Of a DNA stretch of 64,000 nt, positions 8,809 to 40,298 are shown in pieces. The notes beneath the pieces are model-generated. The model did not search any database, was not told the origin of the DNA, and worked only from the letters and a program-made list of their open reading frames with translations. Position 1 is the stretch's first letter. Each line of letters begins with the position of its first letter. The position numbers and the translations under genes were made by a program. The DNA is from Escherichia phage FEC14, in the sequence record MG383452. One strand, 5' to 3'.

Positions 8809-8815
8809 TATTTAG
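8809..8815 (-). promoter_or_regulatory. late-promoter-like CTAAATA box
   Basis: Minus strand reads ctcaCTAAATActg about 30 nt upstream of the scaffold ATG. Confidence 0.4.
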
Positions 8816-8826
8816 TGAGCTGAAAT

Positions 8827-9495
8827 TCAGCCCAGATGATTCAATGCTGCATCAAGGCGGCGCAGGAAATCGTCTTCAACCTGGATATTGGTTTTCACCA
8901 ACTGGTCTACAACTTTCCCTTTAACATCACGAGGCATCCAAATACCCGAAGCCTCATCAAGCTGCCATTCAACAGATTCACTCACAGCCTTAACATAACA
9001 AACTTGTCCAGAAGGACGGTCGACTGCATCAACAGCGGTGAGCATAAAGCCAGGCTGAACGTCATCATAACCGTTTACTGACTTGGTCTCACCCAGGCCA
9101 CGTGTAGACACGGCCAGATTGAAGTCTGCTTCGGCCAATGCACGTATGATTTGGCCTTTTGGTGTATTTAAAATTCGCGCCCGACCGATGGCATTAGTGC
9201 CTTCCCAGCGAAGGGATTCGGTTTTGAGCGCTGCTTCCACCAGATTAGGGAAAGGATAGTCAGGATGTGTGACTTCACCGATTGCGCGACGATCTTGGAT
9301 ATACTCTTTGTCGTATGCTTCGACAGCAGGAATACCCACTTTCTGCAGATCATAGTTACGCCCGTTACGGTTGACTTGGTTACACATCACAAACGGACCT
9401 TCGATGAACATGGCCTTCCCACCAGTTGAGGTTGTGGCCTCACCGATTTGAAGATCCTTCCCTATCGCTGTGATCTCACGCAACAGTTTCATCAT
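8827..9495 (-). CDS. prohead protease (T4 gp21-like)
   Basis: 222 aa, position between portal/core and scaffold genes as in T4; AAGGAG RBS. Confidence 0.6.
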   Translation of the reverse strand: MMKLLREITAIGKDLQIGEATTSTGGKAMFIEGPFVMCNQVNRNGRNYDLQKVGIPAVEAYDKEYIQDRRAIGEVTHPDYPFPNLVEAALKTESLRWEGTNAIGRARILNTPKGQIIRALAEADFNLAVSTRGLGETKSVNGYDDVQPGFMLTAVDAVDRPSGQVCYVKAVSESVEWQLDEASGIWMPRDVKGKVVDQLVKTNIQVEDDFLRRLDAALNHLG

Positions 9496-9502
9496 AAACT
9501 CC

Positions 9503-9820
9503 TTACTTGTTCTTACTCAGTCCCATCATTTTGCGGAACTTCATAGCCTTTTTCTTGCGGCGCTCGATTTTACGTTGATAGCCCATTCCCATACGCTTTT
9601 TAGAGCGGAGAGCTTTGCGGTTGCCGATCTTGCGAACACGACGTTCGCTGGCGTCCATAACTTCACAACGTGAACCATCAGCCGACAATTTGAACCCAGG
9701 GGCACATTTCAAGCGGCGGCGGCGTTTACCACGAGCGTTCACTTTATCGATGACTCGCTGCTCGTCCATACGAGAGGCCAGGAAATCAGCGAACGTGGCG
9801 ATCTCTGTGATTTCCATCAT
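9503..9820 (-). CDS. small basic prohead core/internal protein (gp67/68-like position)
   Basis: 105 aa, Lys/Arg-rich, between portal and protease; AAGGAGA RBS. Confidence 0.4.
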   Translation of the reverse strand: MMEITEIATFADFLASRMDEQRVIDKVNARGKRRRRLKCAPGFKLSADGSRCEVMDASERRVRKIGNRKALRSKKRMGMGYQRKIERRKKKAMKFRKMMGLSKNK

Positions 9821-9828
9821 GCATCTCC

Positions 9829-9999
9829 TTACTGGCCGTTGTTGTTTGAATTCATATCAGCTGCGATAGAATCCAGAACATATGCTGTGCCTTGGTTTAA
9901 TAGTTCTTGACTACGTGCATCAAGTTCCATGTTGCATTCTGCAACAGCAGTTTCAGTGTCACCGTCAATTACTGCACGAACGATATCAATTGCGCTCAT
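9829..9999 (-). CDS. small hypothetical protein (about 56 aa, below ORF-track cutoff)
   Basis: My own translation of the minus strand gives an ATG ORF preceded by GGAGA; coordinates approximate. Confidence 0.3.
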   Translation of the reverse strand: MSAIDIVRAVIDGDTETAVAECNMELDARSQELLNQGTAYVLDSIAADMNSNNNGQ

Positions 10000-10040
10000 G
10001 ATTTTGATCTCCGAATTAATTTTCTATATTTAGTTGAACT

Positions 10041-11723
10041 TTAAATACTATCGTCTGTTGAACCGGAGAATGGGATAGTCTCAGGTTTAAACTTCAACGG
10101 ACTAACATCTGAACCGCTATAATTGCCAGTTTCATCTGCTTGAACCTTCGGATAGAGACCTTTCTTCTTCTCTTCCGCGATCTTCGTTTGTTGTTCTTTA
10201 ACTTCTTCATCAGACATACGCAATACATTTCTCATGACGTAGTCTATGGAGAAAATGGAACCAACAAATGGCTCAACAGTGTTCAATGAAGCCAGACGAT
10301 CATTCAAGATAGCGTTTTCTTGTTGTTCACGAATGTAACTATCGGATGTGAATTCAAACTTTATAAACGGTTTGATCTTCTCATTCCAATCCTTTTCATC
10401 CGTAACGCCTTTCAAAATTAACTGGCGGCGCAAGAATTCCATGAAGAAATGGGAGTAACGGCGTCGTAACCCAGCACAGAACTTGCTGAAGCGCAGCTCT
10501 TCCTGTGTAATCTCCGCAAGGTTAGAACCCCCAATGTTAATAGATCCTTCCTCTTGGAGGCGGCTCTTAGGGATCATTAGAGCATCATAGAGTTTTTCAC
10601 GGAAATAGTTCACGTGATCCATTTCGCCCAATTGATTCCCACCCCCAACAGTCGCAATCTCTGTAGCATTCTGACCTTCGCGGCGCGGCAACCAATAATC
10701 CTCTGCAATACCCATAAGATGGGCATTACCTGTTATCTTACCAGTGGTGCGGTCATATGCGTTGCGGTTTTTGAATTTACCCATCATCATGGTCATGTAT
10801 TCTTCAGCAGATTTCTTACCGAGAGTACCGACGTCAAGATAGAATGCGCGTTTCTCAGGGGCGCGAGTGATGGCATAAATTACAGTCGCATCTTCAGTCG
10901 TAACCAGGTTGTTCAACGGACGGATAGCAGGATTTAAAAGGCCTGGGACAATACCATTGGCCAATGGCTCTTCACCACTATCGATGTAAACAATGCTTTC
11001 GTCATCGAATACGAGTTCTTGCTGTGAAGGCTGGAAGTTCTGGGAAGTACCAGATTGGCCAGTGAATTGGTTTCGATTATAATTCGGGTTGTAATAATAC
11101 TTCAATGTTACAGATTCTATTGCTTCAATACCGCCTTCACGCATCGCCTTCTCAACGATATAGACAGGACGAATGCAACGAGAATCAAGCATAACCAATT
11201 TCTTGATCCCGCCTTTTTTATTCGTGGGATCAACGATGACATGATATGCTTGTCGACCGTCAACATACCATTTCCGGATCTTCTGATATGCTGTATTGTC
11301 AAAGTCCATCAAGTGCATAACTTCTTTGAAGCATTCGGTGATAGATTCTTTAACAGTATCAGATATCCCTTCAACTTTGTCAAGGTTTACTGTCACTGGA
11401 GTTTCATCTTCCTCACAGGTGACAACGTCATTAACAATGATGTCCACAGCTTTGCGGATTTCTGGCTGCTGGGCCATGGACTGATATTCTTCCACAACTG
11501 TTTTAACGCTGAGAAGTTCACTCTCAACGCCAACATAGTTGTAGGTGTTTGCACCGCCCTGAAGGATTATAGAACCGTCTTGAGCATCGTCCAGAGCAAC
11601 AACTGTCGCCTTGGTGAGCAACAATTCATCTTGTTTTTGGGCTAACTTATCGGTGTCGACTTTGGCATTGACTAAACCGCCGCCGCCAAACAAACCGAAG
11701 AACCCTGTGCCGTATCCAGCCAT
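10041..11723 (-). CDS. portal protein (T4 gp20-like)
   Basis: 560-aa ORF between tail tube and prohead genes in T4 order; GAGGA RBS. Confidence 0.7.
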   Translation of the reverse strand: MAGYGTGFFGLFGGGGLVNAKVDTDKLAQKQDELLLTKATVVALDDAQDGSIILQGGANTYNYVGVESELLSVKTVVEEYQSMAQQPEIRKAVDIIVNDVVTCEEDETPVTVNLDKVEGISDTVKESITECFKEVMHLMDFDNTAYQKIRKWYVDGRQAYHVIVDPTNKKGGIKKLVMLDSRCIRPVYIVEKAMREGGIEAIESVTLKYYYNPNYNRNQFTGQSGTSQNFQPSQQELVFDDESIVYIDSGEEPLANGIVPGLLNPAIRPLNNLVTTEDATVIYAITRAPEKRAFYLDVGTLGKKSAEEYMTMMMGKFKNRNAYDRTTGKITGNAHLMGIAEDYWLPRREGQNATEIATVGGGNQLGEMDHVNYFREKLYDALMIPKSRLQEEGSINIGGSNLAEITQEELRFSKFCAGLRRRYSHFFMEFLRRQLILKGVTDEKDWNEKIKPFIKFEFTSDSYIREQQENAILNDRLASLNTVEPFVGSIFSIDYVMRNVLRMSDEEVKEQQTKIAEEKKKGLYPKVQADETGNYSGSDVSPLKFKPETIPFSGSTDDSI

Positions 11724-11745
11724 GATCTAAGTCCTCAACATTTTC

Positions 11746-11770
11746 TTGTAATTAGTGAGGGGGAATAACA
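11746..11770 (-). other. intergenic GC hairpin between tail tube and portal genes
   Basis: Inverted repeat gggggaat-gtta-ttccccc; possible attenuator or RNA-stability element. Confidence 0.35.
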
Positions 11771-11790
11771 TTCCCCCAGCACCGAGGACA

Positions 11791-12324
11791 TTACAATGAC
11801 TTGTCAGAAACGGCTTGGAAATAACGCAAGTCGACAGTGAACTGTGTGTAAGAGTCCATTGCCGACATATCGAGTTCCAATTGGCCGAGGTTTTGAGGCC
11901 AGCCACCCTGCAAAGTCCATGTCTTAGTCACGTTGTCATTCGCGTCCAGAAGTTCCATGATGATATCACGGAAATAATCATCTGGATTCGCGCTGGCGCG
12001 GTTGTTTTCACTACCGTTGATGAATTGCTGCCACACTTCAAAAGCATTGTATGGAGCGTTGTTCACCACGTTAATGAACGTCACAGGAAGCGCTTCGAAA
12101 CGACGATCCCCTGGGAACGGAAGTTCACGACCACCCCAGGGCACCAGAATTTCGCCCAGCTGACCTGTTGGGGTGTTGGTGGTTACAGCCAGCAAGGACA
12201 CGTCACGAATTGTGTCGGAACCAGCAACAAAAGAAGGAAAGTTTACAGTCACACGCCAGCGGTGTTGGCGTTGTACGCCGCCCCCTCGTGACATGGCTGC
12301 GCGAAACTCATTGACTGTCGCCAT
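11791..12324 (-). CDS. tail tube protein (T4 gp19-like)
   Basis: 177 aa, adjacent to the sheath gene (separated only by the endonuclease insertion). Confidence 0.6.
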   Translation of the reverse strand: MATVNEFRAAMSRGGGVQRQHRWRVTVNFPSFVAGSDTIRDVSLLAVTTNTPTGQLGEILVPWGGRELPFPGDRRFEALPVTFINVVNNAPYNAFEVWQQFINGSENNRASANPDDYFRDIIMELLDANDNVTKTWTLQGGWPQNLGQLELDMSAMDSYTQFTVDLRYFQAVSDKSL

Positions 12325-12354
12325 TTTTATATCTCCAAATAAGAGTACACAATT

Positions 12355-12813
12355 CTAATTAGTCGTCAATCTTTTAATCTTCATGGAAGAAAGATCGAAA
12401 CCATGATGAACATTACTTGAAACAGGTTCGATTTCACACAATTCCCAACGGGGATCTATGAGAGAAACAAGACCAATGTGTTCACCTGTGGATGTCAATT
12501 TTGCTGCAGTTTTACCCAGCATATGACTTCCATCATTACCGCCTTTATTCATGTTGTAACCCATCTCATAAGAATTATATTGAGCGATGAGTTGCTTCTC
12601 TAATTCCCATTTATGGACTTCATCGGTCTGAGCAATTACAACGAAAGTAAATCCAGATGTTCCATACTTACGCATAGCATCATACAATTCACTTTGGACT
12701 CCATGATGAAAAGCATTCGCAAAATGCTGATCATATCTTCGTTGTGGGTCATTGGTCACACCGATGTAGACCTTTCCATTAGTTATCGTTTCAATTTTGT
12801 ATGCGTATATCAT
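12355..12813 (-). CDS. GIY-YIG homing endonuclease (free-standing)
   Basis: N-terminal YAYKIETITNGKVYIGVT...RRYDQH matches the GIY-YIG motif with conserved Arg and His; inserted between tail tube and sheath genes. Confidence 0.7.
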   Translation of the reverse strand: MIYAYKIETITNGKVYIGVTNDPQRRYDQHFANAFHHGVQSELYDAMRKYGTSGFTFVVIAQTDEVHKWELEKQLIAQYNSYEMGYNMNKGGNDGSHMLGKTAAKLTSTGEHIGLVSLIDPRWELCEIEPVSSNVHHGFDLSSMKIKRLTTN

Positions 12814-12837
12814 TCAATAACTCAAATCAATAAGACA

Positions 12838-12866
12838 AAGGAAAACCCCGCCGAAGCGGGGTTGGT
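12838..12866 (-). terminator. rho-independent terminator downstream of the sheath gene
   Basis: aaccccgccgaagcggggtt hairpin followed by a T-tract on the minus strand. Confidence 0.55.
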
Positions 12867-12871
12867 CATTT

Positions 12872-14767
12872 TTATGAAGCAGCAACGATGCCGCCACCGG
12901 ATTCGATTTCGCTGAACTCCATATCTGGTCGAACTGCAGCAAAATCCAAATAAATCCAGTTAATGCTGTACTCAGGCTTCAACCAAATACCAGCAACCAT
13001 TTGGTTTGCCGCAATGATATCAGCAGTGTTGTTGTCTTCATCACATTTGACTTTACCATCGTAAATCGCGCCCATATTTGCCAGCTGGCGAATATATGGA
13101 CGAACCGCATTGCTGAACAGACCACGTGTAAACGCGTCATTGTTCTCACCAAGATAGTATTTGGCGATTGCGGCGATGTTCTGCTCAGCCATGATGAACA
13201 GGCCACGAACGTTGATACGGTCAAACGCCGACGGGCGGGTCAGGCCAGTTTTGTCACCATACAGGACGATGCCTTCATTGGAGAAGGTTACGATGCTGTT
13301 GATCTGGTTGCGGTACAACACAGCACGTTCATCAGAAGATGCAGACCACGCCATTCGATTATAGTTGTTGTATTTACCACGGTTGTGGAACGCCGGAGAT
13401 TTGTAGATACCCGCGATTTCAATGCTTCGCGCCCAAACACCTGCGGTGCCACCACAAGCCGGAATCCAACGCATTTTGTCGTTGTACTTGTCGTACACAT
13501 ATGCCCAGTTATCATCCATGAAGAAATAAGAAGAGTCGCGAACAAGGCTTTCACGCCAAGCAACGACATCATCCATTTCACGACCACGGTTGCCAACAAC
13601 CGTATCACGGAGCGGGGATACGAAAGATACCGTATCTTTTCGCTCAGTAGATAAGTCGATCAATGCTTGTTGCTCAATCAGTTCTTCACAGTACGCAAAT
13701 ACTGGCTTCGCATCATATGCTTCAGCATTGTTCAAGACTTGGATAGCTGCCACGCGGTTGATGTTATAATCGTCTACGCCGCCTTCTAATTCAACAACAC
13801 CTGCGGCCAGAGCGGTAGCGAAGGTGTACACCCAATTTGATGTATCATTGATGACATCTTTGAAGTACGCATTCGCGCCATCGGACTTTTTGGAACCCTG
13901 TGTGTTCTGCATGAGTTCGTATTTTTCGATAATAGAACCAGATGCGCCAACAGTGGTAATCACGGCGGTTGCAGTCAGCCCCTTATCATCTGGAACAATA
14001 GCAGTAACTGTCTGGGGACCAATAGCTTTATGGGTCACGATGACAGTGTTGGACTTCACGACAACAGAAGAATAAACACTTGTCAGGGAAGTTAGTGCTG
14101 TACCGATTTTGGTTGCCAAATCGGCTGGAGTATCAGTATCCAGATATGCGATATCTTCACCTGCCACACTGATGGTGCCAGCAGCAGTAGCCGTACCAGA
14201 AACGGAGATACGGTCAACCTGACCGACCGCGCCAGCAGAGTCGGTAATGCGACCAACTTTGTCTACGACAACTACATGGAATTCACCAGACTGAGGTGCG
14301 TATGCAAAGTTATTACGGAATTCCCAAGTTGAGAATCCAGCAGCATCACAAACATTGATAGCAATATCATTACCCAGGGAACCTGGATAACGACCAGTCC
14401 AAGTGATGGACGCCGAAGGACTTGCTGTTTCAAAATCCAGTTTGTTTTTGATCGCAATCGCTGTCTGACCTTTGGTAACAGAGTTCTTGGCCAGAGGACC
14501 AACAACACGGGTCACCCATGCCATAGAGCTGTAAGACAAAAAGTCCGCGATTACGAGAAAATCGGTCGCAGTACTGTCGTTGGGTTTGAAGAATTTCTTC
14601 ACCAAACCTGTCTCACCACCAGTCACCAGCACTGGAAGTTCAACTTCACCCCATTGAAATTTTCCGACGGTCGCGCCCTGAACAACAACGGACGGGGACG
14701 TCTGAAGCGTGGCATCACGCTCAGTCCACTGAACGGACGGCGCAACGCTGAAGCTTTGAGTTGCCAT
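12872..14767 (-). CDS. tail sheath protein (T4 gp18-like)
   Basis: 631 aa from the ATG with GAAGGA RBS (track ORF starts at 14800); directly downstream of the terminase genes as in T4. Confidence 0.7.
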   Translation of the reverse strand: MATQSFSVAPSVQWTERDATLQTSPSVVVQGATVGKFQWGEVELPVLVTGGETGLVKKFFKPNDSTATDFLVIADFLSYSSMAWVTRVVGPLAKNSVTKGQTAIAIKNKLDFETASPSASITWTGRYPGSLGNDIAINVCDAAGFSTWEFRNNFAYAPQSGEFHVVVVDKVGRITDSAGAVGQVDRISVSGTATAAGTISVAGEDIAYLDTDTPADLATKIGTALTSLTSVYSSVVVKSNTVIVTHKAIGPQTVTAIVPDDKGLTATAVITTVGASGSIIEKYELMQNTQGSKKSDGANAYFKDVINDTSNWVYTFATALAAGVVELEGGVDDYNINRVAAIQVLNNAEAYDAKPVFAYCEELIEQQALIDLSTERKDTVSFVSPLRDTVVGNRGREMDDVVAWRESLVRDSSYFFMDDNWAYVYDKYNDKMRWIPACGGTAGVWARSIEIAGIYKSPAFHNRGKYNNYNRMAWSASSDERAVLYRNQINSIVTFSNEGIVLYGDKTGLTRPSAFDRINVRGLFIMAEQNIAAIAKYYLGENNDAFTRGLFSNAVRPYIRQLANMGAIYDGKVKCDEDNNTADIIAANQMVAGIWLKPEYSINWIYLDFAAVRPDMEFSEIESGGGIVAAS

Positions 14768-14810
14768 AATATCATTCCTTCTCGGTAGAGTTTCGCTCAA
14801 TTTGAAAGAT

Positions 14811-14817
14811 ATTTAGT
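14811..14817 (-). promoter_or_regulatory. late-promoter-like CTAAATA box
   Basis: Minus strand reads atcaCTAAATAtct about 45 nt upstream of the sheath ATG, between terminase stop and sheath start. Confidence 0.4.
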
Positions 14818-14819
14818 GA

Positions 14820-17030: not shown

Positions 17031-17691
17031 CGTCTTCTTCCTTCACATCAACTGTTTCACCATCAATGATTTCATCTTCTGGTTGTTGTGCGGCCTTTGC
17101 TTGTGCTCTTTCTTCAGCGCGGCGGCGTGCATCTTCGATCGTCTTCAATAAATCGCGAGAAGATCGCGCCTTTTTCCCAACCGATACTGTTGTTGTTCCG
17201 TCTGGTGAAGTTGTAACATCCACTGTCGTGTCATCAACAGGTGGTTCTTTATCACCTGTTACTGCCTTGATGGTTTTCTGGTTTTCCATCAAGTCTTTAT
17301 TCAGACCTCGCATGAGTTCACCCAATTCACGGAAAACAGAAAATGCTCGCGGAGCTTCTGTGGATGCAGCCAATTTAGCGGCTTGTCCCATCATGAACAT
17401 TGTGGCTTCTTGCATGGCATATGTTGTGTCGCGTATCCGTTTGTAATCCGTTGTAGCATCAGTGTCCGCAAACTCAGGTACTTTGGATTCCTTGGAAGCA
17501 ATATCCTCCAATGAAGGCGGTTCAGGAATCGGCTGATACCCTTCCGGACGTTCACCAAACCATTCACCTGTATTTTCATCGAAGTCAATACCTGGACGAG
17601 GGGCGACAGCCTCCATTGCCTCCTTCCCAACTTCGTCTCGGGCAGTCACCGCATCAAGTGTGGCGAGTAACCTTTCTGACATATTGCTCAT
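17011..17691 (-). CDS. terminase small subunit (gp16 position)
   Basis: 226 aa from the ATG with GGAGGA RBS; overlaps the large terminase start; sits between gp15-like and gp17-like genes. Confidence 0.5.
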   Translation of the reverse strand: MSNMSERLLATLDAVTARDEVGKEAMEAVAPRPGIDFDENTGEWFGERPEGYQPIPEPPSLEDIASKESKVPEFADTDATTDYKRIRDTTYAMQEATMFMMGQAAKLAASTEAPRAFSVFRELGELMRGLNKDLMENQKTIKAVTGDKEPPVDDTTVDVTTSPDGTTTVSVGKKARSSRDLLKTIEDARRRAEERAQAKAAQQPEDEIIDGETVDVKEEDDGVSEA

Positions 17692-17693
17692 GA

Positions 17694-18392: not shown

Positions 18393-18394
18393 GA

Positions 18395-19036
18395 TTATTC
18401 CCCGAAGTCTATCTTCATTTTATTGGGCGAAAGATCTTTCTCTATTTCGTCCGCAAATTGGTTATCCGTTTGCAGGCTGGCGTCTTTGTACACACCGTCT
18501 CCTTCCAGATCCTGCAATCGTTTATCGATATCGTCTATTTCAGATACACCTGTATCGAAATCTTCGTTACCGTATTGGAACAACGTACATGGTAGGGAAT
18601 ATGTGTACCATTTCCCAAATTGCATGAATTCTTCATCGTTGTTCGGGTTATTCACTTTAAATATTTTGTTAGCCATAGGCAGATATATCAAATCACCTTC
18701 TTGAGGCATTTGTTCAAGGCCTGGACCATTACCAATAACTTCTGAAAAACGACGACGAGCAATAGTGAAGGTCACTTCATCTTGTAATTGGATACCGCCG
18801 AACTTTTCCCACATCTGTGTGTTGAAGCCTTGATAATCCTGCATATACACTTCGATGTCAAACGCTTGGTCGAATTTGTGTTCGGCCTCGTTTAAAATTG
18901 GGTATTTTTCAACAATAGAACGTGGGATATACTTGACGTCAATCCCACGCAATTGTATCATCTCGACCACCAAGTCATCAATTAATTTTTGAGTACCTTG
19001 ATGTGCTGTATAGTTGAAATATTTTGAAGTAGCCAT
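18395..19036 (-). CDS. neck protein (gp14 position)
   Basis: 213 aa; called from T4 synteny only. Confidence 0.45.
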   Translation of the reverse strand: MATSKYFNYTAHQGTQKLIDDLVVEMIQLRGIDVKYIPRSIVEKYPILNEAEHKFDQAFDIEVYMQDYQGFNTQMWEKFGGIQLQDEVTFTIARRRFSEVIGNGPGLEQMPQEGDLIYLPMANKIFKVNNPNNDEEFMQFGKWYTYSLPCTLFQYGNEDFDTGVSEIDDIDKRLQDLEGDGVYKDASLQTDNQFADEIEKDLSPNKMKIDFGE

Positions 19037-19059
19037 GACTTTACCCTCAATTTTGAAGG

Positions 19060-19066
19060 TATTTAG
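19060..19066 (-). promoter_or_regulatory. late-promoter-like CTAAATA box
   Basis: Minus strand reads tgaCTAAATAcct about 25 nt upstream of the gp14-like ATG. Confidence 0.4.
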
Positions 19067-19097
19067 TCAATCATTAATTCTTTTGAGGAATTGATAA

Positions 19098-19310
19098 ATG
19101 AAGGTTGAAGATATTAAAGAAACTCGTGACGGAAGGCGTGTGAGAATTATCTGTGTAGATGCTAAAATCGCCGATGGTTCATATAACATTGTGGGTCTTA
19201 TCAAAGGCGAAAAGGATAATGATTTTATTGAATGGTGGGACGAAAAGAACGTGGTTGATGGTTATATTCTAGCAAATTCAGATCCTTCCGGACGCGACAT
19301 CAAGTTATAA
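19098..19310 (+). CDS. small hypothetical protein on the opposite strand
   Basis: 70-aa ORF with GAGGAA RBS and ATG, followed by a hairpin; embedded between minus-strand neck genes. Confidence 0.45.
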   Translation: MKVEDIKETRDGRRVRIICVDAKIADGSYNIVGLIKGEKDNDFIEWWDEKNVVDGYILANSDPSGRDIKL

Positions 19311-19314
19311 AAAG

Positions 19315-19336
19315 AAAGGCGGGATAACCCGCCTTC
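19315..19336. terminator. bidirectional terminator hairpin
   Basis: aaggcggg-ataa-cccgcctt between convergent gene ends. Confidence 0.5.
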
Positions 19337-19338
19337 TC

Positions 19339-25575: not shown

Positions 25576-25582
25576 TATTTAG
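25576..25582 (-). promoter_or_regulatory. late-promoter-like CTAAATA box
   Basis: Minus strand reads gtataCTAAATAtctc about 35 nt upstream of the 1612-aa gene ATG. Confidence 0.4.
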
Positions 25583-27960: not shown

Positions 27961-28000
27961 TCTCTAGTAAATACCCTCCGAAGAGGGGTATATTTTTAAA
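27961..28000 (-). promoter_or_regulatory. intergenic hairpin upstream of tailspike 1 (variant of the tailspike promoter-hairpin element)
   Basis: taccctc-cgaa-gaggggta hairpin, then AGGAG RBS and ATG on the minus strand. Confidence 0.35.
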
Positions 28001-30770: not shown

Positions 30771-30810
30771 CCCCATAAAGGATTTGCCAATATGGGGTAT
30801 TTAGGCTGAA
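30771..30810 (-). promoter_or_regulatory. late promoter CTAAATAcccc fused to a 5' hairpin whose 3' arm GGGGTATTT precedes the ATG
   Basis: Minus strand reads cagcCTAAATAccccatattggcaaatcctttatggggtattttcaaATG; inverted repeat taccccata / tatggggta. Confidence 0.5.
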
Positions 30811-30866: not shown

Positions 30867-32999
30867 TCATATCAATCCGTAAATGACATTGTGTATTGCG
30901 ATACCACCAACAATAGAGGAAACATTGAAATTAATTTCAGCTTTGTAAGCTCCTGGCGGAACGCAATCCACCAAAGCATAAAAGTTGAACGTGTTTCCTA
31001 CTGGGATGTTATATCCTATGGAATCCGCGACAGCATTTCCTTGCTGGTCCAGGAATCTAATTGATGCCAGGGTGGTGGTTGTATTTTTAGCCCAAAAACC
31101 AAGTTGAAAATAACGCCCAGGCTCACAGTCAATGATTGTCTGGGTGAAATTAGCCGCTGCACCCACTGATGGTACGGATAAGACAAAAGAAGTTGAAAAC
31201 ATTAAATCATTAGGGACATCATTTCCTACAGTAGCGGTGACAACGCCGGATCCAGTTTGTGACAGCGCCCAGTTAGATATATTATTAAACTGTCCTGAAC
31301 CGTTACTAATACTGTTTATATGAGGGCTTACAATGCATCCTAAATCCCAGTTACTTGTGATAAATCCTGCGCGTGGATAGCAACCTCTAGACATTACTTT
31401 TTTACTTAATCCGCCTATCAACTGCCTTGTGGCAAATCCAGTAGCAATCGTTGTATTCCCATAGAGTGGTAGCGAACAATTATTTAGAATAACAACCCCA
31501 TCCCCGTTGTTTACAATAGGTACTGTAGAATAATCATTTGGCAACAGTATCGTCGAATCACTGATGCTTAATCGTGAACTACCATCCACAGTAAACCCAA
31601 CGAAACTCTGACCTGGTTGATACTCAATGTTACCGTTTGTGAAAACCATAGTTGCGTTATCAGATAACGCGACAACAGGGTCAAAATATCCTGATTTTTT
31701 ACCTGCTGGCAGAGAGCAGCTATCGAATATAAATTGACCATTAACAAACGTGAAAGGTCCACCGTTGTCAACCATCCAACAATGATTAAATTTTATAACC
31801 TCACCGGAATTCGCTGGTGAATTGAAAATAACAGAATTTGTAAAACTTCTGGACAACGTACATTTATCAAAAAGAATACGATATGCATTATCAAGAAACT
31901 CAATTCCGGCAGTTGAGATAAACCCGCAATTAGATATTCTTAACTCTGAGACTTCTCCACTGGTAGAACCACCGATCGCCAATTTCCTGGTCCCTTTTCC
32001 AACAAATGACACTCCAGTCATTAACGCAGTTGCGTTAATTACATCTCTATTGGTGTAATCCGTGTCTGTATTAACAATGGTTAGATAGTAGCCGCCCGTT
32101 GCAGATGCAGATTCTATTAGAGTACATTTATTTTTTCCAATAAGTGCACCTTTTGCTATATCAAAAATAATCGGTGTTGTTATCTCACCAGAAACAGGGA
32201 CTACACAGTCAAATCCGACGGCATTTATTTTATTGATGAATATAGCCAAATCTCCGGTTCCTGTATAACCAGCTTCGTACACATCCACCACACCGTTGAA
32301 TAATTTCCTTTTCCAAACGACACCATTGCCTTGGAAAGTAACGATATTATCTACCACAGTATCTGAGTTAACAGCCACCATAACACCGCCACCAAGATTA
32401 AACCCGTCAACATACGAATCAAGAATTATAGAATCACCAATTAATCCTGCTATTGATGATAATTCAGAAACTGATGATACGGTTCCTATATAAGATAAGC
32501 CATTCGGTTTATTTAAATTACTTTTCAGAGATGCAACACCAACACTCAACCATGCACCTAAACCAACGCCACCAGATGTTTCAGGTGTTGAGCCAGCATC
32601 GACAGTTTTAGGAAGTGAACCATCCCATCGATATTTTTTATCATCGTGAACAAGAAGTTCATTTTTCACATTAATGATATGGCCGAAATTAAAAGAACCA
32701 GGTAAAGTCACATATTCTTCGCGGCTTACTGCTAATTCCCCAAGGTCAACAGAGCCAGCGGAATGAGTGAGGATGGCTTGTTCGTTCAGGCTTATCGCAG
32801 TCGTTCCTGAAACAATACCCGAAGGAAGAGAATAAGCCCGTTGGGTAGACTCATCATAAATTACTTTAAATCCACCGAGATCAATACCGACAGTGAAATA
32901 AATGACTTCGTCTTCTTTGACACCGAAATTTCGAGCGATAGATTGTTTGTTAACTTCTATGGAAGTGGAGCCGCGTGGTTGATTGAATTGAGAAATCAT
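30867..32999 (-). CDS. tailspike protein 3
   Basis: N-terminus MISQFNQPRGSTSIEVNKQSIARNFG... is paralogous to the tailspike 1 N-terminal module; beta-helix-like body. Confidence 0.7.
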   Translation of the reverse strand: MISQFNQPRGSTSIEVNKQSIARNFGVKEDEVIYFTVGIDLGGFKVIYDESTQRAYSLPSGIVSGTTAISLNEQAILTHSAGSVDLGELAVSREEYVTLPGSFNFGHIINVKNELLVHDDKKYRWDGSLPKTVDAGSTPETSGGVGLGAWLSVGVASLKSNLNKPNGLSYIGTVSSVSELSSIAGLIGDSIILDSYVDGFNLGGGVMVAVNSDTVVDNIVTFQGNGVVWKRKLFNGVVDVYEAGYTGTGDLAIFINKINAVGFDCVVPVSGEITTPIIFDIAKGALIGKNKCTLIESASATGGYYLTIVNTDTDYTNRDVINATALMTGVSFVGKGTRKLAIGGSTSGEVSELRISNCGFISTAGIEFLDNAYRILFDKCTLSRSFTNSVIFNSPANSGEVIKFNHCWMVDNGGPFTFVNGQFIFDSCSLPAGKKSGYFDPVVALSDNATMVFTNGNIEYQPGQSFVGFTVDGSSRLSISDSTILLPNDYSTVPIVNNGDGVVILNNCSLPLYGNTTIATGFATRQLIGGLSKKVMSRGCYPRAGFITSNWDLGCIVSPHINSISNGSGQFNNISNWALSQTGSGVVTATVGNDVPNDLMFSTSFVLSVPSVGAAANFTQTIIDCEPGRYFQLGFWAKNTTTTLASIRFLDQQGNAVADSIGYNIPVGNTFNFYALVDCVPPGAYKAEINFNVSSIVGGIAIHNVIYGLI

Positions 33000-33005: not shown

Positions 33006-33045
33006 ACCCCATAAAGGATGACCAATATGGGGTATTTAGTCTGAA
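33006..33045 (-). promoter_or_regulatory. late promoter CTAAATAcccc plus hairpin plus GGGGTATTATC-ATG
   Basis: Minus strand reads cagaCTAAATAccccatattggtcatcctttatggggtattatcATG. Confidence 0.5.
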
Positions 33046-33101: not shown

Positions 33102-36100
33102 TTATGATTCTATAATTTTATAGGATAGAGAAACATTACCATCAACTGGAGCAGCATCGATTCCTGTCGGTCTTGTTGCGGTCTTAACCATGACACCAGC
33201 GATAGTTTGTCCAGCAGTTGCACCAATATACTTAGAGCAATTTACTGAATAAAATAATTGCCTGTATTCAATATTACCTTGAACCTCACTTAGAACAACA
33301 TAGGCCGCACCAGCATTAACTGAACAGTTTGTGTGTATGTTTACCTTCTCCCCTGTGGACACTCTGAACATATGACCACCATCTGTAGATATTCCAGAAA
33401 GGCCGATTAGTGATAATGTGCCACCTGCTTTAATAAGGAAACTACTACCAGAATTTGCTTTTAAGCTCCCAGGACCTTCAAACACCACCATCGGCAGTTC
33501 TGTGTTAGATGTAATAACTGATTCTCCAGCATTAAGGTAAACACTTTTACACCTAAAAAGCTGGCATATTTTCGCAATATTAGTTAATTCACGTATAGGT
33601 TTAGTTCCATTGGTCCCCCAGTTATAATTATTACCATTCACTGGGTCTATATAAAGAGTATCTGCTTTTACACCAACAACATCTTTGATATAGAAAATGT
33701 CACCAACTTCCCCAAATTGGAATTGACTTCCCATGTTTGTACAGTCCAGTACCAATGTGGGGTAATTACCAGTACCCCTAACGAGTTTTACGCCACTTAC
33801 TGGCATTTGTCCTCTAACAACATTTCTGGCAGTTTCTGGGCAGTTTTTAAGGAAGTACATACTATCTAGATCAGGGTCTTGTCCTGAAAGACCCACTCCT
33901 GACAACGTAACATCCGAACTGGTATTGATAAGATAGAAACTATGTTTTTTCTTCCCGCCAGATGACTCAATATGGGGTTTATCAACCATAAATAAACCAT
34001 AGGAATCAGTATCTCGACCAGCGTGAACAAAGTCGAAGGATGCTTGTTCGATGATTGGGCTATTAAACTTAACCTCTGAACCTGCAAACTGAGTGACGGC
34101 AACATCACCTACCTCAGTAAATCCTGCTGGTTTATACACCGCTTGTTCCAACTCACCATTAGTATTACCAAGGCGAGAAATGTAAGCATTGTTTACAGCA
34201 GCACCGCCATTAGAGTCAATGAACACTGCGCCCTGAGTTTTATACAGGATACGTAGATTTTCATGAACAGAACCCCATGATGCTGACTGCAACAATCCTA
34301 CTCTTGGCAGTCTTGCTGTTGTAATATCGCTCCCTGTATTCTCCCCAATGGATAACCCTTTTGTAGTGCAACCTGCCCCACCTATCCATTTAACACCAAC
34401 CTTTACACCTGGTGCTGTAATCAGGTTAAGGTTACTAATATCAATTTTTCTGGCACATGTTACAGCGTCCCCATTATCAATATCTAACCCAGTAGGATAA
34501 TAATCTACATCTTTATTGAGTTTGTATGAACCATCAGGCTGTTTACGGTACACCATTAAGCTGATTGCTGCTGTATTCTTATCTACTGGGTCATAAAACA
34601 ATCCTTGCTTACACTCACGAGTAAAAAAGTTTGGTGCAGGCATTTCAATTGAAACACCTGGAGGTATGTATAGCGTCTCTGTGAAACGGTATAACTTGGT
34701 CAGGTTAATTTTTACTGCTACTTTCTCCATGTACGAGTTTACAGCCGCAGCATCAGGAAGTGTTTCAGGAACGTTGTTTATGTCTGAAAGCATTTCTTTT
34801 AATTTTGAAGTATCGTCAGCTATTCCGTCGCCTACCGCATTGTACTGTTCAGGTGTGCGTACAGTTAATACATTATTTAGCGTCCCGTGCGGATGAACTC
34901 CAATCAACGATCCATTACCGTTTGCCAGTTGTGTTCTCAATGAGGCATCACCAACACTAATCCATGCGCCAACACCAACGCCGCCTGTTGTCGCAGGAGT
35001 TGAGCCAGGAGCAACGGTTTTAGGAAGTGTACCATCCCAACGATACTTTCCATCCGTGTGAGTGAGTAATTCATTTTTAACATTGATGACAGCACCAGAA
35101 TCAAATGTCCCAGACAATGTTACGTATTCTTCACGAGATACAGCTAATGCGCCCAGATCAACACTACCAGCAGAATGCACAAGTACAGCCGAAGAACTAA
35201 GGCTGACTGCCGTGGTTCCAGTCGGTAGCTCTGGAATAAAATATGATCTCTGTGTTACTTTATCATAGATAACTTTATATCCACTTAACACAGCACCAAC
35301 ACTAAAATAAATGACCTCTGTATCTTTAACATTGGTTACACGAGCCACTTCCCGCAAAGTATAATCAATTTGATTATAGATGTTTGGCGTTCCATTGATA
35401 ATTACAACAACTTCATCCTCCGCATCCAGTTCTTGCGCAAGAGTGATTTTACTGGTTAATGGATCGAATGTGAACCCCAGATTTTTATACTGGCGACTTC
35501 CGTTTATATCAATGGCCGGAACATCATCAACAACGATGTCTAGCGTTATTTCGGTTTCGCCACCGATAGCGGATCCGCCATTGTAAATCCAGGTGATTGC
35601 AGAAGCGCCCGAACCCCCGCCGCCAGTGCCCAATTGAATAGGAGTATATTCAATCACCTGAAGTTCTGTGTTGGCTGGCAAAGAAGGACTGAAAGTGATT
35701 ACATTCCCATCTAGTGAATATTTGGATTCCGCAAGACGTTTTCCGTCAGTATACACGTCCACGATTGTTGGTGGAGTATTGAGAGTGACAGCACTTGTTT
35801 CAGACGCCAAAATTTGTGTAAAGATTTCACGACTGTAGACACGGCCTTGGCCAAGACCGACGCCGGATGTGATAACCCAACCTTGTTCAGGTCCAGACCA
35901 AGTGAACGTTGCTGATACGTTATCAGTTGTTATAGCCATGTCTTCAGTGGAGCCATACAAATTATTTCCAGAAGGAGACACGGTCAATGGGTAAGTGGCA
36001 AATTTCCCATAAGCATCACAAATAGTAACGGAATCCCCAATACGCGTAGGGGAAGGGAGAACCACTGTAGATGTCCCTGTGGTATTATTAATGAGATATC

Positions 36101-36392
36101 CACGACCTTCTAACAAATTGCTAGAGGGAGCGTGAGGGAGCGTTTCCCAGCGTATTCCACCACCCCCCAAAGACAACCAACCACCGTTTTCGTAATAACC
36201 TTCAAATTCATCACTATCAGGATTGTAACGCACAGAAGATGGAAGACCTGTAACTTCAGTATCTTCAGGAAATGTCATTACGGCACCAGGGGAATGCTCA
36301 ATAGTGCCGGAGTTGTTGAAGCCTTTTATGTTCGAAGACTCAGAAGTTTCTAAACCCAAAGGGAAAAGAGGCTGTGTTGGTTTGTTGGCCAT
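33102..36392 (-). CDS. tailspike protein 4 (1096 aa) carrying an internal copy of the shared tailspike module
   Basis: Residues about 335-480 (VKDTEVIYFSVGAVLSGYKVIYDKVTQRSYFIP...) repeat the N-terminal module of tailspikes 1 and 3. Confidence 0.7.
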   Translation of the reverse strand: MANKPTQPLFPLGLETSESSNIKGFNNSGTIEHSPGAVMTFPEDTEVTGLPSSVRYNPDSDEFEGYYENGGWLSLGGGGIRWETLPHAPSSNLLEGRGYLINNTTGTSTVVLPSPTRIGDSVTICDAYGKFATYPLTVSPSGNNLYGSTEDMAITTDNVSATFTWSGPEQGWVITSGVGLGQGRVYSREIFTQILASETSAVTLNTPPTIVDVYTDGKRLAESKYSLDGNVITFSPSLPANTELQVIEYTPIQLGTGGGGSGASAITWIYNGGSAIGGETEITLDIVVDDVPAIDINGSRQYKNLGFTFDPLTSKITLAQELDAEDEVVVIINGTPNIYNQIDYTLREVARVTNVKDTEVIYFSVGAVLSGYKVIYDKVTQRSYFIPELPTGTTAVSLSSSAVLVHSAGSVDLGALAVSREEYVTLSGTFDSGAVINVKNELLTHTDGKYRWDGTLPKTVAPGSTPATTGGVGVGAWISVGDASLRTQLANGNGSLIGVHPHGTLNNVLTVRTPEQYNAVGDGIADDTSKLKEMLSDINNVPETLPDAAAVNSYMEKVAVKINLTKLYRFTETLYIPPGVSIEMPAPNFFTRECKQGLFYDPVDKNTAAISLMVYRKQPDGSYKLNKDVDYYPTGLDIDNGDAVTCARKIDISNLNLITAPGVKVGVKWIGGAGCTTKGLSIGENTGSDITTARLPRVGLLQSASWGSVHENLRILYKTQGAVFIDSNGGAAVNNAYISRLGNTNGELEQAVYKPAGFTEVGDVAVTQFAGSEVKFNSPIIEQASFDFVHAGRDTDSYGLFMVDKPHIESSGGKKKHSFYLINTSSDVTLSGVGLSGQDPDLDSMYFLKNCPETARNVVRGQMPVSGVKLVRGTGNYPTLVLDCTNMGSQFQFGEVGDIFYIKDVVGVKADTLYIDPVNGNNYNWGTNGTKPIRELTNIAKICQLFRCKSVYLNAGESVITSNTELPMVVFEGPGSLKANSGSSFLIKAGGTLSLIGLSGISTDGGHMFRVSTGEKVNIHTNCSVNAGAAYVVLSEVQGNIEYRQLFYSVNCSKYIGATAGQTIAGVMVKTATRPTGIDAAPVDGNVSLSYKIIES

Positions 36393-36397: not shown

Positions 36398-36436
36398 ATA
36401 CCCCTAAATGTATTCATGTCATCTAGGGGTATTTAG
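36398..36436 (-). promoter_or_regulatory. late promoter CTAAATAcccc plus hairpin plus GGGGTATTACAA-ATG
   Basis: Minus strand reads aaaaCTAAATAcccctagatgacatgaatacatttaggggtattacaaATG. Confidence 0.5.
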
Positions 36437-37629: not shown

Positions 37630-37631
37630 TT

Positions 37632-38486
37632 TTAGCTCCTTGTGCTTTCTAGGAATACAGTAAATCCAGCAGGATGAAAATGCTGACGGAAGACGCGCTC
37701 AAACACACCTTCAAAATCAGATACGTCGCCTGGGACTCCTATAACATAAGTGTATTCATCATAATAGTAATCATCACGCATCCCTGTCGTGCCGTCACAT
37801 TCAAAATTTCCGTCCAGACCGCCTATGTCTTCTTTCGTAAAATAGACGCTGACTGGACAACCGAAATATATCCAAAAGAACAATTCAATCGCTTTCTTTG
37901 TTCCACGTATTTTATAGATGTGTTTCAACAATTTCAGCCAACGCGGATGATCCAGAGTTCTCCGTTTCGTTCCTTCGATATAAACAGAGAACGTATCGCC
38001 CGTGGCCGTCAATAAAGAATCCGAACCGACTGGGATAAAATGTCCAAATTCTTGAAATGATTTATCAACAGTTCGTTGGAAACCAAAATCATTATACCAG
38101 TCATCTATCTGTTTGTTCTTATCTTCTATTGACAATAGCGGCCTTCCGTCGGCATCTAAAAGTTCTTCGGCATCCAGAGCCATCATGTTCTCAAAGGTAC
38201 GAACCAAGAATTTATCAGACAAATAATCCTTGGCCTCTGAGCCTGGAGTCTTGTCAGCCTTTAAATCAATCAGCTGTTTAACCGGAGAATCTTCACTCTC
38301 GGGATTCATCCAACTAGACGTATCTGCCAGATATGCCAAGATCTCTTCTTGAGTGAACCCCTGCTGTCTATACAGCCAATTGAAGAACGTGTCCATAAAT
38401 TCTATGAACAGAGGGAAATCATTCTGGTAGAACAACGGGGTTTCATACTTAACCCCGTTGTGTCCATTATTAAGATCTTTGGACAT
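37632..38486 (-). CDS. putative baseplate component
   Basis: Internal ATG (MSKDLNNG...) chosen; sits between the baseplate wedge-like and tail-fibre genes. Confidence 0.4.
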   Translation of the reverse strand: MSKDLNNGHNGVKYETPLFYQNDFPLFIEFMDTFFNWLYRQQGFTQEEILAYLADTSSWMNPESEDSPVKQLIDLKADKTPGSEAKDYLSDKFLVRTFENMMALDAEELLDADGRPLLSIEDKNKQIDDWYNDFGFQRTVDKSFQEFGHFIPVGSDSLLTATGDTFSVYIEGTKRRTLDHPRWLKLLKHIYKIRGTKKAIELFFWIYFGCPVSVYFTKEDIGGLDGNFECDGTTGMRDDYYYDEYTYVIGVPGDVSDFEGVFERVFRQHFHPAGFTVFLESTRS

Positions 38487-40251
38487 AGCGCACCTCTGGC
38501 GTAACAACCACATCACCAATCTTGAATACTTGGTTTTGTGTAGCCTGTATGTTCTGGTTCAGTCCATCCGGTAACACGACTATGGTCACCCCTTCAGGGT
38601 TATAGTTAGAGACCGTGATCTGCTGAAGGTCTACAACCCCATTTGCATAATCCACAACCCCTGTTTTTTGAACTAAAAACTCTTTTGTCGTGTCATTGTT
38701 ATTCACTTTATACATGTTCAAATCGCCATTATTGTCGCGCATGTAGTAAGTGAAATCCACCTCGGCAGGAAGCGGTTTGAACCCCGTTATTTTCACAGAA
38801 CCAGGTTTGATACTTCGTCCATAACTGAATGTGAAACTGTCTAAGACTCCATAATCAGGTTTGAAATGGCGTTTATAACCAACCGAAGTAATATTCGAGT
38901 TAATAGAACGCTCCATTTTTGTAATTGCTTCCTGCAATATTTCTTTGTCAAACAATTGATCAAATCCGCCGAGATTATTTTCACCCCATTTAACGATACT
39001 GTTTCCAACAACAACTTTCATCTGTTCTTCAACGTAGACTGTAGAAGTAGGATCCCAAAATATAGTCGTTGAGACTTGGATATATGTGATCTCGGAGTCT
39101 ACTACTTTGGGGGTAATAGATCCCACATTATACTTGTCCAGAGCAGCAACGATATCGGCCTTCTCAGCGTCCGAAAGTGTCTCACCAACAGAAGGTATAA
39201 CAGCGATGTAAACATAGCCAGAATCAGGAGGAGACAGCGTGTCACCACCATATGATTTAGCTCGGGAGACGTTGGAGAATAACCTTTCAGTCAATACACC
39301 ATAATCTGTTTCTGTAACCGCCGCACCATCAGCCTGATAAGCTAAAGGAGCCAACCGTTTAGTGTCCTCAATAGATTCTGGATCGTCTCCACCTGCGCTA
39401 CGTTCGGAAACCAATTCTACGTCGACCTGGTTAAACCCGCCTATGGATGACGCTGATGACAGGCTTGTAATATCATTCCCATCAGCACCAGAAGTTTCTA
39501 AGTATTGAAGGAATATGACGTTCCCATCTTCTACTCGACGCGAAAGATAACCATCTCCGAATTCAAACACATACAGACCATCAATACCCAATTCTACGAA
39601 ATACAGGTAGGCATATTGGCTCAGATCAAATGGACTGTTGTAACGTTGATATGTCGTCGAAACGTCGGAAGACTCTGATTCTTGTACTTGCACGACCATA
39701 TGATTGATATCGACATTCCCAGAAGGAATCGTATATGTTGAAATCGCGCTTCCTTCAACATCATATGTCTTGTACAACCAATTCCCCTGTACCAACTTTA
39801 CATTGTTGAACATGTAATAACCGTCTGCAGTCAACGTTGCCGACACTGGTTTCTCAACAGTAAAGTTGTAGGAACTGCCGTCTTTTGCCCCAACGAACAT
39901 TACGCGCCGATCCATGATGATCTCATTGGGGGCTGTGCTGGCGTCATAAGGCGTAACTTTGATGTTGACATACATGTATGCTGCCCGATAGTTGTCAGGC
40001 GTGTAGGAAAGAAATGCAGCAGATAAACCGACGTTTGAACGTTGATTTGCTGTCTTCAAATGGCCTTCACCATTAAGCATGTTTTGCATAAAGGCTATGG
40101 CGTTCGCGTCAGATGCCAACAAACGAATAATCGCACTAAGACCAGAACCTTCAAAGTCATAATCTTTAAAGGTGGGATCAGCTTTCATTCGCTGTTTAAT
40201 AATGTATTCAAATGCTCTGACGTCGAGTGAAGGAACTGTTTGCGTGGCCAT
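38470..40251 (-). CDS. baseplate wedge-like protein (gp6 position)
   Basis: 593 aa from the ATG with GGAGA RBS; the track ORF start at 40302 is a non-ATG codon that overlaps the promoter box. Confidence 0.45.
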   Translation of the reverse strand: MATQTVPSLDVRAFEYIIKQRMKADPTFKDYDFEGSGLSAIIRLLASDANAIAFMQNMLNGEGHLKTANQRSNVGLSAAFLSYTPDNYRAAYMYVNIKVTPYDASTAPNEIIMDRRVMFVGAKDGSSYNFTVEKPVSATLTADGYYMFNNVKLVQGNWLYKTYDVEGSAISTYTIPSGNVDINHMVVQVQESESSDVSTTYQRYNSPFDLSQYAYLYFVELGIDGLYVFEFGDGYLSRRVEDGNVIFLQYLETSGADGNDITSLSSASSIGGFNQVDVELVSERSAGGDDPESIEDTKRLAPLAYQADGAAVTETDYGVLTERLFSNVSRAKSYGGDTLSPPDSGYVYIAVIPSVGETLSDAEKADIVAALDKYNVGSITPKVVDSEITYIQVSTTIFWDPTSTVYVEEQMKVVVGNSIVKWGENNLGGFDQLFDKEILQEAITKMERSINSNITSVGYKRHFKPDYGVLDSFTFSYGRSIKPGSVKITGFKPLPAEVDFTYYMRDNNGDLNMYKVNNNDTTKEFLVQKTGVVDYANGVVDLQQITVSNYNPEGVTIVVLPDGLNQNIQATQNQVFKIGDVVVTPEVRYVQRS

Positions 40252-40291
40252 GATAATCTCCATCACCTGAGTTTGAATATGGTGTTGAAGA

Positions 40292-40298
40292 TATTTAG
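40292..40298 (-). promoter_or_regulatory. late-promoter-like CTAAATA box
   Basis: Minus strand reads ttggCTAAATAtcttc about 45 nt upstream of the ATG at 40251. Confidence 0.4.

Follow-up and report, generated by a model that had tools for sequence, protein, structure and literature searches.

Does the heptamer CTAAATA, which recurs upstream of structural genes in Escherichia phage FEC14, mark the promoters of its late genes as a similar element does in phage T4? The question was raised by a sequence-only reading of a 64,000-nucleotide (nt) stretch of this phage (record MG383452; the whole stretch is hereafter called the window), which noticed such boxes upstream of most structural genes and likened them to the T4 late promoter. 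We confirm the boxes as a real and non-random feature that is conserved throughout the phage family. The resemblance to T4 is supported by their strand, spacing and position at operon starts, by the lack of a −35 element, by their conservation and by the factor genes found in relatives, and we consider it likely, with a probability of about 0.85, that they are −10-type late promoters read by a T4-like late sigma factor of the phage.

Distribution of CTAAATA in the window

Counted on both strands, CTAAATA occurs 16 times in the window, against 7.2 ± 2.5 copies expected from dinucleotide shuffles, and none of 100 shuffles reached 16. When the copies were placed on a curated map of 69 genes, with distances taken from the 3' end of the box to the ATG, 11 of the 16 preceded a same-strand start codon by 21–42 nt (binomial p = 2.7e-18), and among all 7-mers of the −70 to −13 windows, scanned without preselection, CTAAATA was the most enriched one (hypergeometric p = 3e-14), 11 of its 16 copies falling there. 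Non-coding DNA, which accounts for 8.1 kb or 12.7% of the window, holds 11 copies where a first-order Markov model expects 1.3, and every intergenic copy lies on the strand of the downstream gene. The GC content of this non-coding fraction is 0.446, the same as that of the whole window, so the intergenic DNA is not AT-rich. A similar density inside coding regions had been named beforehand as an outcome that would speak against promoters; with 11 copies in non-coding DNA and only four in 56 kb of coding DNA, the density is 19 times higher outside the genes, and this objection therefore falls away. The four intragenic copies, at 28214..28220 on the plus strand (antisense to a tail spike gene), 31481(−), 34874(−) and 56854(+), are in line with chance.

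Position-specific scoring of the motif, also proposed beforehand, was performed with a weight matrix built from 40 distinct instances taken solely from other genera (phages Ag3, RC-2014, Magnus, phiMAM1 and phiEa2809). Scanned over both strands (128 kb), this matrix placed the 11 upstream boxes at ranks 1–11, above every other site in the window, with a copy that follows tRNA-Met at rank 12 and the coding matches below it. All the sites singled out by the sequence-only reading do exist, namely those at 8809, 14810, 19060, 25576 and 40292 on the minus strand and at 43852 on the plus strand, except that the sheath box occupies 14810–14816 instead of starting at 14811. Its estimate of 25–45 nt to the ATG holds as well, the measured distances being 28, 42, 23, 33 and 40 nt for 8809, 14810, 19060, 25576 and 40292, respectively. 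Two exact upstream boxes, at 10027(−) and 48763(+), were missing from its list, and four further copies, at 30798(−), 33033(−), 36430(−) and 48284(+), run into a hairpin.

Conservation across the Ackermannviridae

The window belongs to the Ackermannviridae (ViI-like phages): megablast with its positions 6000–26000 retrieved 289 phage records, with identities of 97–98% to Kuttervirus genomes over 19.6 kb. The closest records were Escherichia phage vB_EcoM_JN03 (98.2%), Salmonella phage SFP10 (97.4%) and Se-G (96.8%), and the identity to Ag3 and to the Dickeya, Klebsiella and Serratia members of the family was ∼78%. Seven genomes were compared, the window itself together with Se-G (Kuttervirus), Ag3 (Agtrevirus), RC-2014 (Limestonevirus), Magnus (Taipeivirus), phiMAM1 (Miltonvirus) and phiEa2809 (Nezavisimistyvirus), and the orthologous gene starts were located by tblastn; Aeromonas phage phiA8-29 (Tedavirus) is the most distant member examined.

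A box at a near-constant distance from the ATG is present in seven of the seven genomes ahead of the genes for the scaffold, the sheath, the VrlC-like protein, the 1096-aa tail spike and the baseplate wedge, as well as ahead of the gene starting at 48802. These boxes persist although the intergenic flanks are often unalignable and the encoded proteins fall to 38–60% identity, and all seven bases are kept at orthologous positions in seven genera of the family. In phiA8-29, seven of the 13 genomic copies of CTAAATA precede late genes (portal, sheath, gp48-like, gp2-like, a tail-tube-like gene and two others), and other late genes are preceded by the variants TTAAATA or ATAAATA. The 49-nt divergent gap between the gp2-like and tail-tube-like genes of that phage (record positions ∼69043–69091) is occupied by two CTAAATA boxes arranged as an inverted repeat (CTAAATAtgtctgtggaTATTTAG), apparently a pair of back-to-back late promoters. 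The whole genome of Se-G carries 24 copies, ∼17 of them upstream of genes, and those outside the region of the window include copies before structural genes, a gp48-like gene, a RuvC/endoVII-like gene and a UvsW-like helicase gene. The T4 counterparts of the last two are expressed late.

Architecture of the putative promoters and their transcription units

Beyond the box itself little is fixed. Among the 12 window sites and 59 distinct family instances, no column of the 15 nt upstream is conserved except an A at position −1, found in 40 of the 59 instances and replaced by T in none; positions +1 to +4 are pyrimidine-rich, and positions +5 to +7, where a T4-type start would fall, are A-rich in 41–42 of the 59. 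All 11 upstream boxes share an identical TAAATA core, and no −35 element is conserved.

Gene names were taken from the Se-G annotation of the collinear stretch. The late structural cluster occupies the minus strand from ∼40.3 kb down to 2.3 kb and includes the genes for the major head protein, protease, portal, tail tube, sheath, terminase and neck proteins, for the VrlC-like protein, four tail spikes or fibers and the baseplate wedge; beyond it lie a tRNA region and then a plus-strand block running into the DNA polymerase gene. Within the late module, all gaps of at least 30 nt contain a box or a one-mismatch variant with two exceptions, the gap before the homing endonuclease gene 12355..12813 and that before the tail spike gene 25707..27941, and no box was found between genes that overlap or lie less than 15 nt apart. 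The statement that boxes stand upstream of most structural genes is thus correct for the starts of most structural-gene transcription units, whereas the translationally coupled genes inside the operons are boxless. The units so marked are those of the wedge, the tail spikes, the VrlC-like protein, neck and terminase, sheath, tube, portal, head core, scaffold and capsid, and strong intrinsic terminators are found 20–70 nt upstream of many of the boxes.

The first gene of the minus-strand late cluster is the gp6-like baseplate wedge gene (38470..40251), whose box at 40292..40298 (weight-matrix score 18.5) lies in a 477-nt divergent gap. Downstream of it, the genes for the 1096-aa tail spike (33102..36392), the 710-aa tail spike (30867..32999) and a further tail spike (27996..30761) carry the 11-mer CTAAATACCCC with a hairpin at 36430..36436, 33033..33039 and 30798..30804, that is, 37 nt, 33 nt and 36 nt before the ATG (the likely one, at 30761, in the last case). 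The box and hairpin at 36430 occur in all seven genomes, with a stem extension that differs by genus, and intrinsic terminators precede the other two at 33105–33070 and 30853–30833. The box at 25576..25582, also behind a terminator (25701–25681), precedes the gene for the 1612-aa VrlC-like structural protein (20704..25542) and is kept in all seven genomes despite unalignable flanks. The one at 19060..19066 reaches the highest score (21.1), is present in six of the seven genomes and stands in a 61-nt divergent gap before the gp14-like neck gene (18395..19036), which heads a gp14-gp15-TerS-TerL operon. Since the gaps at 40292 and 19060 are both divergent, a promoter must exist in each of them. 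Further along the cluster are the boxes of the tail sheath gene (14810..14816; gene 12872..14767), of the 56-aa gene at the start of the head-core and protease operon (10027..10033, 27 nt before the ATG; gene 9829..9999) and of the gp22-like prohead core or scaffold gene (8809..8815; gene 7941..8780). At the position of 10027, Magnus has the canonical heptamer and Ag3 and RC-2014 have CTAAGTA; the scaffold box stays at 27–28 nt in all genomes even where the protein identity drops to 38%. On the plus strand, CTAAATACCCC with a hairpin at 48284..48290, 26 nt before the ATG of 48317..48766, is retained in Se-G and RC-2014, and the box at 48763..48769, which overlaps the stop codon of the upstream gene, lies 32 nt upstream of the 48802..49260 ATG; a phiMAM1 note is the source for annotating the orthologs of this gene as a virion structural protein.

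Three genes of the cluster carry one-mismatch variants. The major capsid gene (6527..7849) had been singled out as lacking the box, and it is correct that only CTAAGTAAT, with CTAAGTA at 7890..7896, is present upstream, 40 nt before the ATG (7849) and behind a terminator at 7927–7910. The gene is not boxless, since CTAAGTA at 7890 aligns with a canonical CTAAATA in phiMAM1 and phiEa2809, and it is best described as carrying a derived box rather than as an exception. The tail tube gene (11791..12324) is preceded at 31 nt by CTAATTA (12356..12362), and the orthologous position is canonical in the same two phages; the portal gene (10041..11723) is preceded at 25 nt by another CTAATTA (11749..11755, downstream of a terminator-like hairpin at 11788–11773), and a canonical box directly precedes the portal coding region of phiMAM1 and phiEa2809 and also stands before the portal gene of phiA8-29. 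Near the end of the cluster, the exact T4 consensus TATAAATA, of which the window has only three copies, occurs with a CCCCC...GGGGG hairpin at 3057..3064, 22 nt from the ATG of a gene for a structural protein (2306..3034), and again at 3268..3275, where a 56-aa gene (3066..3236) has its ATG 31 nt downstream; both sites are candidate late promoters on the minus strand. CTAAGTA, CTAATTA and the two TATAAATA sites appear to serve the same role as the canonical box.

The GIY-YIG homing endonuclease gene 12355..12813(−) is inserted between the sheath and tail-tube genes, and the variant box of the tail tube overlaps its stop codon, an embedded-promoter arrangement like that of the T4 seg and mob genes. 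The sole structural transcription-unit start with neither box nor variant is that of tail spike gene 25707..27941(−), whose upstream gap contains only a terminator-like hairpin (27987–27974) preceded by ATATACCCC; in Ag3 and phiMAM1, a canonical box stands before the best match to this gene.

Late-transcription factors and the weighing of the evidence

The genes for a T4-type late transcription apparatus are located outside the window, and the 97%-identical genome of Se-G was examined for them. There, a 263-aa ‘late sigma transcription factor’ adjoins homologs of gp47 and gp46 and matches phrog_234 over nearly the full profile (E = 1.6e-53), the family that T4 gp55 itself matches (2.9e-69). 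A gp33-like co-activator of 80 aa matches PF16805 (E = 4.6e-19), and a gp45-like sliding clamp matches phrog_223 (E = 1.5e-65) and adjoins clamp-loader genes. The identical gp55-like protein is found in 136 Kuttervirus records.

Taking T4 as the guide, from which we infer sigma recognition, start site and late timing, the host core RNA polymerase would late in infection carry the gp55-like sigma factor, together with the gp33-like co-activator and the gp45-like clamp. This complex would recognize (A)CTAAATA at about −12 to −6 and would need no −35 element. With the T4 geometry, transcription would start ∼6 nt after the box, in the A-rich patch, giving leaders of ∼15–36 nt, and each box would open one structural-gene transcription unit. 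The functions of the boxed genes likewise suggest that they would be expressed late.

Several observations weigh against this assignment. Published data on transcript 5' ends, on timing or on in vitro transcription were not found for any phage of the Ackermannviridae. The factor genes are outside the window and were checked only in the 97%-identical relative, and the gp55-like protein is just 18% identical to T4 gp55 in pairwise comparison and has no Pfam, NCBIfam or PDB sequence match, its membership of the gp55 family resting only on PHROGs and on tblastn to cyanophage gp55. The capsid gene, the most highly expressed one, has a mismatched box, and the tail spike gene TSP1 (25707..27941) has neither a box nor a one-mismatch variant upstream.

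Alternative explanations

The main alternative moves the function of the box to the RNA, where it would be a processing site for an RNase E-type or phage endonuclease and the hairpin would be the protective 5' stem-loop of the processed mRNA. The box is AU-rich, a stable stem-loop directly follows five copies, which is a typical RNase E setting, all intergenic copies are on the transcribed strand, and both T4 and Aeh1 are known to have RNase E processing (PMC2988022). RNase E sites are degenerate, however, whereas the seven positions of the box are exactly kept in seven genera; the last three box bases lie inside the stem, so that the site would not be single-stranded; and boxes occur where no upstream transcript of the same strand is expected, as in the gaps at 40292 and 19060, after strong terminators and in the 49-nt gap of phiA8-29. 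The TAAATA core, moreover, is that of the T4 gp55 promoter, and homologs of gp55, gp33 and gp45 are present. RNA processing with a protective hairpin is therefore disfavored, and we regard it as very improbable.

Still less credit can be given to the idea that the box is a −10 element for host sigma-70 RNA polymerase, or for a middle-mode activator, instead of a gp55-like factor. TAAATA is AT-rich and loosely resembles TATAAT, and one sigma-70 match (TTGGCT-18-TAAAAT) overlaps the region of 25576, but the sequence ends in A where sigma-70 requires T, neither a −35 element nor a TG extension is conserved, and sigma-70 matches between 24 and 41 kb are at the level of chance (39 versus 41.4). A separate early-type motif, TTCAAT-N14-TATAAT, precedes a different class of genes, and no MotA or AsiA homologs are reported for ViI-like phages (Kutter et al., PMC3184105).

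Chance or base composition, with the boxes as a by-product of AT-rich intergenic DNA, has practically no probability left as an explanation. The four intragenic copies and the one after the tRNA show that chance copies do occur, but the idea is refuted by the 7-mer enrichment, the weight matrix, a non-coding excess (11 observed against 1.3 expected) at average GC content, the uniform orientation towards downstream genes and the conservation in seven genera despite diverged flanks.

Predicted pairing of the post-box tract with the Shine–Dalgarno sequence

A second feature concerns the bases that follow the box in the late promoters proposed here. At 30798, 33033, 36430, 48284 and the TATAAATA site 3057, these bases form a stem of the type ATACCCC...GGGGTAT, whose 5' arm starts inside the box and whose 3' arm is the GGGG(T) Shine–Dalgarno (SD) sequence, 7–8 nt before the ATG. 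Five strong hairpins, predicted at −15 to −18 kcal/mol, are accompanied by several weaker ones: at 19060, ACCTTCAA pairs less strongly with TTGAGGGT, which holds the SD, and short pairings are formed at 40292 (ATCTTCA/TGGAGAT), 14810 (TCTTTC/GAAGGA) and 48763 (GTCC/GGAC). The box hairpins were also considered as intrinsic terminators and rejected as such: the terminator scan was negative, their loops measure 7–14 nt, their T-runs are weak, and the true terminators lie farther upstream.

The pairing extends beyond the obvious hairpins. Duplexes between the post-box tract and the SD average −7.6 kcal/mol for cognate and −4.0 kcal/mol for non-cognate combinations (permutation p = 1e-4), and the preference for the cognate partner is retained when only the seven exact boxes lacking a hairpin are considered (p = 5e-4) and in each of five other genomes. 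For all 11 genes with exact boxes, the predicted probability that the SD is unpaired rises from 0.22 in a read-through RNA to 0.48 in the putative late RNA (Wilcoxon p = 0.001), and in boxless controls with gaps of at least 30 nt from 0.43 to 0.51. The ‘cCcc’ tail of the published consensus is variable (YCYC) and tracks the downstream SD instead of being fixed. Across six genomes, the helix of the wedge gene at 40292 has 97.5% of its cells paired, and the stem of the tail-spike hairpin is kept with extensions that differ per genus; the latter was left out of the pair count, its 3' arm having been misaligned by MAFFT.

In a subset of units, then, the pyrimidine tract after the box would pair with the SD of the gene, and a read-through RNA would be poorly translated. 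An RNA started 6 nt after the box would lack the 5' arm and would be translated. Some points weaken the case for such gating. The capsid, portal, tail-tube and 9829 genes lack the pairing. Covariation gives little support: in the wedge helix, two lineages have one pair with both sides altered and two pairs are altered on a single side, a pattern equalled by 33 of 500 shuffles in an alignment of only six sequences. Read-through RNA may also be scarce, given the strong terminators upstream of many boxes. Because of the four genes without pairing and the possible rarity of read-through, an SD-sequestering arrangement at the boxes, as modeled from predicted structures, is plausible but not established. 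The wider proposal, that the ‘cCcc’ tail is an anti-SD arm outside promoter recognition, that many structural genes of the Ackermannviridae are translationally gated, the ribosome-binding site being exposed only in RNA begun at the embedded late promoter, and that the pairing is kept family-wide by co-variation, is tentative, and we would sooner doubt it than expect it to hold.

Early-type motif and other features of the window

No boxes were found before the replication genes in the window, where TTCAAT-N14-TATAAT occurs instead. Relaxed to TTCAAT-N13-15-TAnnAT, this early-type motif has seven matches in the window against 0.8 expected, at 6138–6163(−), 40668–40693(+), 43868–43893(+), 46246–46271(+), 54438–54463(+), 59054–59079(+) and 62301–62326(+), and 4085..4549, 5272..5718 and 49882..50439 have more TTCAATAA copies upstream, some of them in tandem. 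The genes preceded by the motif are non-structural, its distribution is complementary to that of the CTAAATA boxes, and it matches TTCAAT[N14]TATAAT, the other published motif of the family.

The CTAAATA copy at 43852..43858(+), directly after tRNA-Met (43776–43851), had been counted among the late-promoter-like boxes, and here the proposal probably does not hold. The copy is absent after tRNA-Met in RC-2014, Magnus and phiMAM1, and it abuts an early-type promoter, TTCAATAA-N12-TATGAT, at 43868–43893. As it is not conserved outside Kuttervirus and adjoins that promoter, it was rejected as a late promoter and is probably fortuitous. Besides tRNA-Met, the region contains intact genes for tRNA-Asn (44264–44339) and tRNA-Ser (45007–45095), and next to these three, T-arm-like remnants (GGTTCGATTCC...) at 42017–42044 and 45324–45351(+) are probably degenerate tRNA genes.

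Other features of the window were recorded in passing. A perfect 125-nt tandem duplication (40369–40493 and 40494–40618, copies 100% identical) sits in the 477-nt gap between the putative late promoter of the baseplate wedge gene and the divergent gene 40729..41301. Two TATAAT hexamers are contained in a 15-nt tandem duplication (AGTTATAATACAGAG twice, 1071–1123 on the minus strand) directly upstream of the UvsY-like gene 615..1070. At 51394–51440(+), a conserved hairpin, CGTGC-taac-GGCACG, separates a CTAAATT site from the SD of the DNA polymerase gene (51441..54437). The site reads TTAAATA in Ag3 and RC-2014; the hairpin is retained in Ag3, RC-2014, Magnus and phiEa2809 and looks like a translational operator of the T4 gp43 type.

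Relation to known systems

The T4 late promoters (TATAAATA) share with the boxes described here the TAAATA core, a single short element with no −35 and a location 20–45 nt before late structural genes. The likeness extends to the homologs of gp55, gp33 and gp45 in the 97%-identical relatives, to the exact TATAAATA at 3057 and 3268, and to gene order, gene 55 lying a few kb from gene 47 in T4 and the gp55-like gene of Se-G adjoining gp47 and gp46 homologs. The two systems differ at the upstream end of the element, which is TA in T4 and (A)C in Kuttervirus, where −1 is never T, and in the late sigma factor, with 263 aa in Kuttervirus and 185 aa in T4 and an identity of 18%.

The 11-mer CTAAATAcCcc, given by the sequence-only reading as a consensus of ViI-like phages, reportedly goes back to work by Adriaenssens and coworkers that appeared in 2012 in Arch Virol. 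Only four of the 11 upstream boxes (30798, 33033, 36430 and 48284) match the full 11-mer CTAAATACCCC; the other seven share with it the heptamer and a pyrimidine-rich tail only. The consensus is indeed quoted for the Ackermannviridae, where it counts among the family's ‘two unique regulatory motifs’, and is not assigned there to late transcription (PMC7283392). The late promoter sequence of ViI-like phages was stated to be unidentified by Kutter et al. 2011 (PMC3184105), the search of Anany et al. 2011 was limited to TATAAATA with one mismatch (PMC3121705), and the LIMEstone paper counts 33 late promoters, with no sequence in the portion of its text available to us. Outside the Ackermannviridae, the late promoter of the T4-like phage Aeh1 has been predicted as CTAAATA at −12 (Nolan et al. 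2006, PMC1524935); the same heptamer was obtained there by motif discovery upstream of orthologs of T4 late genes and linked by the authors to a diverged gp55, and, as far as the accessible text shows, it is likewise a prediction.

The hairpins also have precedents. In T4 e, soc, 49 and I-TevI and in Aeh1 mobE, a hairpin masks the ribosome-binding site and contains a late promoter in its 5' arm (PMC3014915, PMC2988022), and here too the 3' end of the box and the next bases make up the 5' arm, with the SD in the 3' arm. A box-hairpin is found as well at the RuvC/endoVII-like gene of Se-G, the analog of T4 gene 49. The T4 arrangement precedes lysis or nuclease genes, whereas that of Kuttervirus precedes bulk structural genes (tail spikes, wedge, neck), and in Kuttervirus, where the arrangement is predicted from sequence only, upstream terminators may already block read-through.

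Overall, the late-promoter box is a correct but ordinary finding, already published for the Ackermannviridae, and it leaves the current understanding of phage late transcription unchanged. Three points are added to it: the conserved unit is the heptamer and not the 11-mer; the variants at the capsid, portal and tube genes are orthologous to canonical boxes in other genera; and the variable tail tends to pair with the SD. The result is a testable late-promoter map for Kuttervirus, a genus widely used against Salmonella and E. coli O157. The map is useful for the annotation of start codons and operons and for the engineering of tail-spike cassettes, the latter because each spike gene forms its own unit of terminator, promoter and ribosome-binding site. 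With regard to the biology of the family, the boxes point to a highly diverged sigma factor of the gp55 family whose consensus would have changed, at its upstream end, from TA to (A)C, and the pairing with the SD, if confirmed, would extend a classic post-transcriptional device of T4 to bulk structural genes.

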